Part shown: positions 8,599 through 8,781 of the stretch, one piece after another
Position numbering within the stretch: the stretch's first letter is position 1
How the letters are laid out: each line of letters begins with the position of its first letter
NCBI RefSeq assembly: GCF_051903065.1
Contig: NZ_CP178438.1
Strand: one strand, 5' to 3'
DNA from: Escherichia coli
Lineage (GTDB): Bacteria > Pseudomonadota > Gammaproteobacteria > Enterobacterales > Enterobacteriaceae
Length of the DNA: 64,000 bases
The notes under the pieces: generated by a model
The model's input: only the letters and a program-made list of their open reading frames with translations
Told to the model about the DNA's origin: nothing
The model's database searches: none
Program-made: the position numbers and the translations under genes

Positions 8599-8781
8599 GC
8601 TCTGTCCCAGCGCCGCCTCCTCAGAAAAGAGTCGGCGCTGAAATTCTCCTTTCGTTCTGGAAAGCGCCTCGCATAATCTGAAGAAAACCAATGTAATACG
8701 CACATCTGGATTGTTACCGGCAGATGCCCGGCGTATAGCTGATTCCATTATTCAACACTGCGCCATATTAAGGGACAGATA

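Follow-up and report, generated by a model that had tools for sequence, protein, structure and literature searches.

Results

The gltD–nanQ interval in a strain without gltF and the yhc fimbrial genes

The window, by which we mean the whole stretch of 64,000 nucleotides of Escherichia coli DNA analysed here (contig NZ_CP178438.1), contains gltD, which encodes the small subunit of glutamate synthase, followed by yhcG and by the oppositely oriented nanQ (yhcH). The genes gltD and nanQ are the left and right core-gene borders of a variable interval, in which the following features are found.

7180–8598, plus strand: gltD, glutamate synthase small subunit, 472 aa (TIGR01318, E 1e-270; annotated as gltD in identical genomes)
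8599–8781, plus strand: gltD–yhcG spacer, exactly 183 bp
8602–8654, plus strand: left part of the spacer, 53 bp between the BLAST breakpoints, without K-12 counterpart (K-12 has its island in this place) and found in all Escherichia outgroups with yhcG
8608–8640, plus strand: inverted repeat CAGCGCCG...CGGCGCUG with a U-rich stretch behind it (folding energy as RNA -23.2 kcal/mol, z -2.9)
8655–8781, plus strand: region travelling with yhcG (promoter/5' UTR); left edge of the yhcG cassette, where K-12 homology resumes
8782–9894, plus strand: yhcG, 370 aa, with a DUF1016_N domain (PF17761, E 1.5e-43) and a YhcG_C PD-(D/E)XK nuclease domain (PF06250, E 1.2e-56)
9954–10418, minus strand: nanQ (NF040884, E 1.5e-69; annotation)

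The gltD stop codon (TAA) occupies positions 8596–8598 and the yhcG start codon (ATG) begins at 8782, which gives precisely the 183 bp that the original prediction had stated. Its second claim, the absence of gltF and the yhc fimbrial genes, is true of the entire window: tblastn searches with the K-12 proteins GltF, YhcA, YhcD and YhcF gave no match anywhere in the 64 kb, and neither YhcA/YhcD nor the DUF1120 genes gltF/yhcF of the yhc beta-class chaperone-usher locus are present between gltD and yhcG. The K-12 gene map on which the claim relied is correct; in MG1655 (NC_000913.3) the gap between gltD and yhcG measures 7,210 bp and contains gltF, yhcA, yhcD, a yhcE gene interrupted by IS5R, and yhcF. 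The two genes are therefore not neighbours in K-12 as well, which was the objection that the prediction had raised against itself.

Positions 7800–10200 are 100% identical to the corresponding region of ECNB21-M121, 23CRST027 and 23CRST031, the only three database genomes for which this is the case, the next best matches being 97.3–97.8% identical. That the adjacency of gltD and yhcG would be an artefact of assembly or windowing can be dismissed for practical purposes, as independent complete genomes have an identical junction and thousands of others contain it.

Two other differences from K-12 were noticed elsewhere in the window. At 53173–53936, a copy of IS1 takes the place of 5,986 bp of K-12 sequence (the 3' end of yhdJ, yhdU, envR, acrE and acrF); in ECNB21-M121, the closest genome, this IS1 is also present but 490 bp more are kept (intact yhdJ and yhdU), which implies that the window strain has undergone a further IS1-adjacent deletion. 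At 33009–33241, a repeat differs in copy number from K-12 (about 3392070–3392393, between tldD and yhdP), the difference amounting to ~92 bp, as indicated by overlapping BLAST segments.

The junction is not a K-12 junction from which the island has been removed

Homology with K-12 ends at window position 8601, two bases past the gltD stop codon, and restarts at 8655, which corresponds to 57 bp past the K-12 yhcF stop codon (BLAST). The 127 bp from 8655 to the yhcG start codon are 75% identical to K-12, as compared with ~99% for the first ~230 bp of yhcG. Because 53 bp are unmatched and the right part of the spacer is this divergent, K-12 cannot be described as the window plus an insertion, nor the window as K-12 minus its island. 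We found neither a remnant of the K-12 island nor a junction-flanking direct repeat above chance level in the 183-bp spacer, and since these 183 bp are conserved intact across Escherichia species they leave no room for a foreign remnant.

One of the two origins originally proposed for the junction was a clean deletion, in which an ancestor with the K-12 arrangement would have lost gltF–yhcF precisely. Some K-12-type genomes have indeed lost the cluster by deletion, and precise excision would also leave no remnants. A deletion scar should have K-12-type flank on both sides, whereas here the left 53 bp are unlike K-12 and the right 127 bp have diverged from it, in contrast to the adjoining part of yhcG. 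Moreover, five other Escherichia lineages have conserved the 53 bp at 8602–8654 that are missing in K-12, direct repeats at the ends of the K-12 island do not exceed chance level, and the deletions that are observed are IS1-mediated and keep K-12 flank: the deletion derivatives of the K-12 state in strains SX12 and MRE162 consist of 302 or 164 bp of K-12-type flank, IS1 and a 5'-truncated yhcG. We therefore consider a clean deletion highly improbable.

Features of the spacer

The hairpin at 8608–8640 is probably the terminator of gltBD. Its stem is kept despite base changes in E. whittamii, E69 and Pseudocitrobacter vendiensis, and its tail, AAAUUCUCCUUUCGUUCU, is only U-rich and is not called by a simple consensus terminator scan. 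With regard to the region travelling with yhcG, a homologous block, TTCCTGGAAAGCGACTCGCAAAT, is found in front of yhcG in Citrobacter gillenii, and the alignment with P. vendiensis covers 99 bp of the region with 75% identity. The yhcF–yhcG spacer of K-12 contains a yhcG transcription start site and a candidate divergent ncRNA, G0-10703 (PMC7967276); a simple scan for promoters in the spacer of the window gave no sigma-70-like site, and Rfam covariance models gave no match at E<=1 on either strand of 8400–10100. It should be noted that the start-codon region of yhcG (ATAATGGAATC) can pair with sequence upstream of it through an 11-bp perfect inverted repeat (8741–8751 / 8779–8789), which places the Shine-Dalgarno sequence within a 27-nt loop and is conserved in K-12 and other Escherichia; this may be a hairpin for translational control.

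Several other short repeats were considered as traces of rearrangement and rejected. The 9-mer GGTAACAAT occurs in the window spacer and, in inverted orientation, at the left junction of K-12, but its alignment score of 18 was equalled or exceeded in 108 of 500 shuffles (15.9 +/- 2.2), which does not argue for an inversion. The sequence TAACAATG, present after both the gltD and the yhcF stop codons in K-12, is not a convincing target-site duplication, as its score equals the shuffle mean and its first copy is also found in island-free genomes. The half-palindrome GAAATTCTCC at 8644–8653 and an inverted repeat of 10 nt on the two sides of the yhcG cassette (CGCTGAAATT/AATTTCAGCG) are of a length that by estimate, not computation, is at chance level, and we make no claim about them.

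The island-free arrangement in other enterobacteria

Using NanQ as an anchor and one genome per species, we recovered 43 enterobacterial loci (E. fergusonii and named E. marmotae and E. ruysiae genomes are not among them), and in none of the 43 does the interval contain GltF, YhcA, YhcD or YhcF. The order gltD, yhcG, nanQ is present in Escherichia sp. E1V33, E. whittamii, the two further species-level Escherichia representatives E69 and SCPM-O-B-8794, and E. albertii, whose yhcG is truncated, as well as in P. vendiensis and Citrobacter amalonaticus. Salmonella arizonae and diarizonae and C. gillenii have the same order, but additional DNA separates their yhcG from nanQ. In E. albertii, E. whittamii, E69, E1V33 and SCPM, conservation of the 183-bp spacer exceeds 90% and extends to the 53 bp that are missing from K-12; the spacer is still recognisable in P. 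vendiensis. Lelliottia, Enterobacter, Huaxiibacter, Siccibacter, Trabulsiella and some Citrobacter have no trace of yhcG; in these, gltD and nanQ are about 45 bp apart, and the gap contains an ordinary terminator consisting of a GC-rich hairpin and a T-run.

Based on these data, the window very probably represents the ancestral, island-free state of the locus, which was never occupied by the fimbrial genes. The outgroup states and the frequencies given below, together with the AT-rich composition of the island and its restriction to phylogroup A, point to the island as a derived, lineage-restricted gain, and we infer that it was gained elsewhere and not lost here. One observation goes against a simple form of this reading: the left junction of K-12 (GAGGTAACAAT plus a palindrome) is common to yhcG-less genomes and another Escherichia species, which argues that K-12 did not arise by simple insertion into window-type sequence. 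In addition, recombination between lineages could have spread the island-free allele, and the fact that several species share it does not strictly prove vertical descent.

The K-12 island itself has a GC content of 0.32 in its left non-coding part and of 0.44 in its genes, as compared with 0.57 for gltBD. The gltF-yhcADEF genes form the yhc beta-class chaperone-usher locus, which has been found only in phylogroup A, and GltF and YhcF have been treated as putative structural subunits (PMC5216030). Both proteins of K-12 belong to DUF1120 (Pfam). The product of gltF is a fimbrial-type subunit paralogous to YhcF, the gene is island cargo, and gltBD needs no gltF.

A multi-state hotspot

We next give the states of the interval among 5,426 complete E. 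coli genomes, the counts listed here covering about 5,400 of them. The gltD/yhcG junction is contiguous in 3,141 of the 5,426 genomes (58%), so that the absence of the fimbrial genes, which the original prediction had taken as the mark of a variable island site, is in fact the default state of the species, and K-12 the exception. Full-length yhcG, as in the window, is found in 2,418 genomes. Another 717 genomes are of the BL21 type, in which yhcG is cut right after its internal palindrome 3 and followed by 470 bp with an ORF of 101 aa; the 101-aa protein (L064, 3338–3800) is annotated as 'transposase' and appears unlike known transposases. The K-12 cluster is present in full in 1,120 genomes and in any part in 1,293 (about 21–24%), with an identity of at least 99% in 1,288 of the 1,293, and this near-uniform sequence points to a single, probably recent origin of the cluster. 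In 947 genomes gltD directly adjoins nanQ without yhcG, with a spacer of 67 bp. Finally, 34 genomes carry a cargo of five genes, encoding a SWIM zinc finger protein, DUF5691, a MoxR-like AAA_5 ATPase, DUF5682 and VWA_CoxE, for which PADLOC gave no match. An example at the same site is the following.

12482–19922 of locus L004 (E. coli O158:H23): five-gene SWIM–VWA cargo

The interval between gltD and nanQ is thus a multi-state hotspot with at least five arrangements, in which one conserved pair of flanking genes encloses alternative contents in different genomes. This confirms that the site is variable. The annotation of the interval includes neither an integrase nor a tRNA in the loci examined, and the insertions of IS1 and IS5 at the locus are only secondary. 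As yhcG is missing in 947 E. coli genomes and in many related genera, it is itself an accessory cassette. The proposal of an 'ancestral empty site' therefore has to be divided: the arrangement is ancestral, while the site is neither truly empty nor limited to two states.

A nearby variable site was observed in the yhcG-less strain LS4, where nanR abuts sspB (L003, about 17800–17900). This strain is without the dcuD/dcuC-family transporter gene that is present between nanR and sspB in K-12 and in a close relative of the window strain, and nanR–sspB is therefore another variable site.

Divergence around the junction

The junction lies in the centre of a ~9-kb zone of raised divergence.

5000–14000, no strand: raised-divergence zone, 93–97.6% identical to K-12 as compared with 98.5–99.8% elsewhere in the window (sliding identity)

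Within this zone, patches are 99.4–99.8% identical to the cryptic-lineage Escherichia sp. E1V33, which suggests recombination between lineages around the hotspot. These data bear on a further explanation, according to which an earlier state of the locus (K-12-type, gltD/nanQ or other) was overwritten, through homologous recombination, by an island-free gltD-yhcG-nan segment from a divergent Escherichia lineage. Such allelic replacement would account for the zone and for its E1V33-like patches, and would be consistent with the fact that only three genomes are identical to the window over 7800–10200. That yhcG can be imported through gltD homology is illustrated by C. gillenii (L040, in the orientation of gltD about 5700–7210), where a direct repeat of ~100 bp of the gltD 3' end flanks the yhcG cassette and is the footprint of such a horizontal import. 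However, the divergence is raised against every comparator, and the zone is a mosaic and not one clean import. Moreover, nothing indicates which state would have been replaced, and the allele itself is the old island-free form either way. We regard replacement of an earlier state in this strain as unlikely, although much less so than a clean deletion, and retain the ancestral, never-occupied state as the preferred reading.

yhcG and the palindromes at the Escherichia locus

The Pfam scores of the two YhcG domains (148.6 and 191.3 bits) are far above the gathering cut-offs of about 32.5–32.8. YhcG also matches PADLOC PDC-S02 (E 2.9e-134); PDCs are untested 'guilt-by-embedding' defence candidates (bioRxiv 10.1101/2024.01.29.577857). 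Based on these matches, yhcG is a candidate phage-defence gene encoding a putative nuclease. A sequence search of the PDB gave no solved structure matching YhcG. The gene has a hypervariable segment (window 9015–9175) that is 75–84% identical to K-12, as compared with about 98% on either side; it consists of tandem palindrome-containing units, two in the window and three in K-12 (39-bp spacing), and makes DUF1016_N about 25–30 aa longer than the Pfam profile.

The palindromes, which are perfect over 25–29 bp in yhcG, belong to a family with the consensus rAATTynnCAGACAnTGTCTGnnrAATTy, of which the window has three members.

9084–9110, plus strand: internal palindrome 1, AATTGTGCAGACA C TGTCTGCACAATT, in frame (IVQTLSAQF); arms of 13+13 nt, 100% complementary
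9121–9145, plus strand: internal palindrome 2, ATTCTCCAGAC TGT GTCTGGAGAAT, in frame (ILQTVSGES), in the hypervariable segment of yhcG
9910–9934, no strand: downstream palindrome between the stop codons of yhcG and nanQ; copy of an internal one along with ~13 nt of the sequence to its left

The downstream palindrome is a candidate bidirectional terminator (fold -22.7 kcal/mol, z -5.0, minus strand). K-12 has five palindromes, one 13 bp after the gltD stop codon, three inside yhcG and one after it. In the 1.23 Mb of enterobacterial sequence that were scanned, all 47 matches to the palindrome core are in the gltD–nanQ interval, with 1.2 expected by chance. Covariation between the arms is seen at three positions and involves four types of pair, a score that was reached in 0 of 500 shuffles.

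The breakpoints of the rearrangements at this locus coincide with the palindromes. The BL21-type replacement begins at the right edge of palindrome 3, the IS1 copies of SX12 and MRE162 are located in palindrome 3, the truncated yhcG of E. albertii terminates in a hybrid formed by the downstream palindrome and internal palindrome 3, and the K-12 island starts right after such a palindrome. A lone palindrome is the sole content between gltD and nanQ in yhcG-less E. coli, Escherichia sp. MOD1-EC7003 and P. faecalis, and one is also found near gltD in Citrobacter sp. On2M.

A palindrome inside genes of the DUF1016/YhcG family

An exact-pattern scan of viral contigs gave matches in 31 contigs, 22 of which encode YhcG homologues with 30–50% identity, and in most of these the palindrome is inside the gene at about the same place. 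An unbiased sample was obtained by retrieving genes with peptide patterns from the C-terminal nuclease domain. It comprised 67 distinct genes, and in 47 of these the linker before the LSWSHY motif contains a palindrome with 11 or more paired positions, as compared with 1 of 67 in a control region of equal size and 0 of 67 in shuffled sequence. The equivalent position is kept even at 30–40% protein identity. The sequences of the arms vary widely (e.g., AATTGCGAACGCGCTGCGTTCGCAATT, CAATTGTCGTATCACTGATACGACAATTG and AATTCGTCACCAAGTTGGTGACAAATT), with the outer AATT and a central CA[C/G]TG being recurrent, and the encoded peptides vary likewise (IVQTLSAQF, IVVSLIRQL and IRHQVGDKL). Three distinct genes of the unbiased sample use a different frame for the palindrome (e.g., EFARQCLTN). 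As arms and peptides differ and other reading frames are used, conservation appears to be at the level of the nucleic acid. The mismatches, typed with regard to whether the palindrome acts as RNA or as DNA, are A.C/C.A (26), G.T/T.G (15) and others (27), without preference for the transcribed strand.

The extra copies of Escherichia, two or three in tandem and in frame plus one after the stop codon, do not reflect a general role of the palindrome as a cassette boundary, as a second copy within 1.5 kb was found in only 3 of 49 other DUF1016 loci; two of these three extra copies are just upstream of the start codon. A description of the palindrome was found neither in full-text searches of the literature on DUF1016 and on yhcG, nor in Rfam or the PDB.

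Discussion

The results presented here allow a scheme to be proposed for the gltD–nanQ interval. The island-free order is gltD, a probable terminator hairpin, the yhcG cassette (upstream region, gene and trailing palindrome) and nanQ, and nothing would have been lost from it in the window strain. The AT-rich gltF-yhcADEF genes would be a later acquisition by part of E. coli (phylogroup A), displacing the first 53 bp of the spacer. The interval as a whole would be a long-standing recombination hotspot between two conserved convergent genes, whose alternative contents are probably swapped when homologous recombination takes place in gltD and in the nan genes, with local rearrangements breaking at the palindromes associated with yhcG.

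The E. coli pangenome has integration hotspots and defence islands that are bounded by conserved core genes. The gltD–nanQ site resembles them in having two conserved flanks, mutually exclusive cargoes that include a candidate defence gene, and raised divergence of the flanking sequence. It differs from them in that it is small and has no annotated integrase or tRNA, the exchange seemingly taking place via flanking homology and local palindromes. As regards the yhc locus, its chromosomal position is the same as that described previously and its variable presence has been documented, the window being a case without it; the phylogroup restriction is on record, whereas junction sequences, outgroup states and other occupants of the site are not given in that study (PMC5216030).

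The palindromes invite comparison with two types of repeats. REP/BIME elements are likewise short palindromes located between convergent genes, where they can serve for termination and as recombination breakpoints, but the yhcG palindrome has another sequence, is not dispersed and derives from an element of a coding sequence. True REPs fill the gltD–nanQ spacer in some Citrobacter and Pseudocitrobacter. The Rickettsia palindromic elements (RPEs), as described previously, are like the yhcG palindrome in being palindromic DNA in frame inside protein-coding genes, with a peptide that is tolerated and not conserved; they are 100–150 bp long, mobile and dispersed over many unrelated genes (Ogata et al. 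2000, 2002, cited in PMC4316617). In contrast, the yhcG palindrome is 23–37 bp long and occupies one fixed position in one gene family. Within the 1.23 Mb of enterobacterial sequence it is confined to this locus, without the copies over unrelated loci that are typical of REP/BIME or RPE-like repeats.

We tentatively propose that the near-perfect palindrome of 23–37 bp inside yhcG and most DUF1016/YhcG-family genes is a selected nucleic-acid element and not a by-product of the protein sequence, and that cutting and rejoining of the hotspot take place at its extra copies in Escherichia; we would give this combined view somewhat less than an even chance of being correct. Candidates for such an element are an operator or a target to which the protein itself binds, a hairpin in mRNA or single-stranded DNA, or a recombination site.

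In summary, the island-free junction of gltD and yhcG is real, ordinary and already explained, being both common and ancestral, and it is K-12 that is atypical. This atypical position of K-12, and the view of gltF as island cargo and not as a member of a universal gltBDF operon, have both been published before. What the present analysis adds is a census and an outgroup polarity for a small multi-state hotspot, and the finding that yhcG, which encodes a widespread and uncharacterised putative PD-(D/E)XK nuclease, is itself an accessory cassette. If the proposal on the palindrome is true, a widespread candidate defence nuclease gains a conserved cis element that had hitherto not been described, and this conserved intragenic palindrome, if functional, would provide the first experimental handle on the YhcG protein family.
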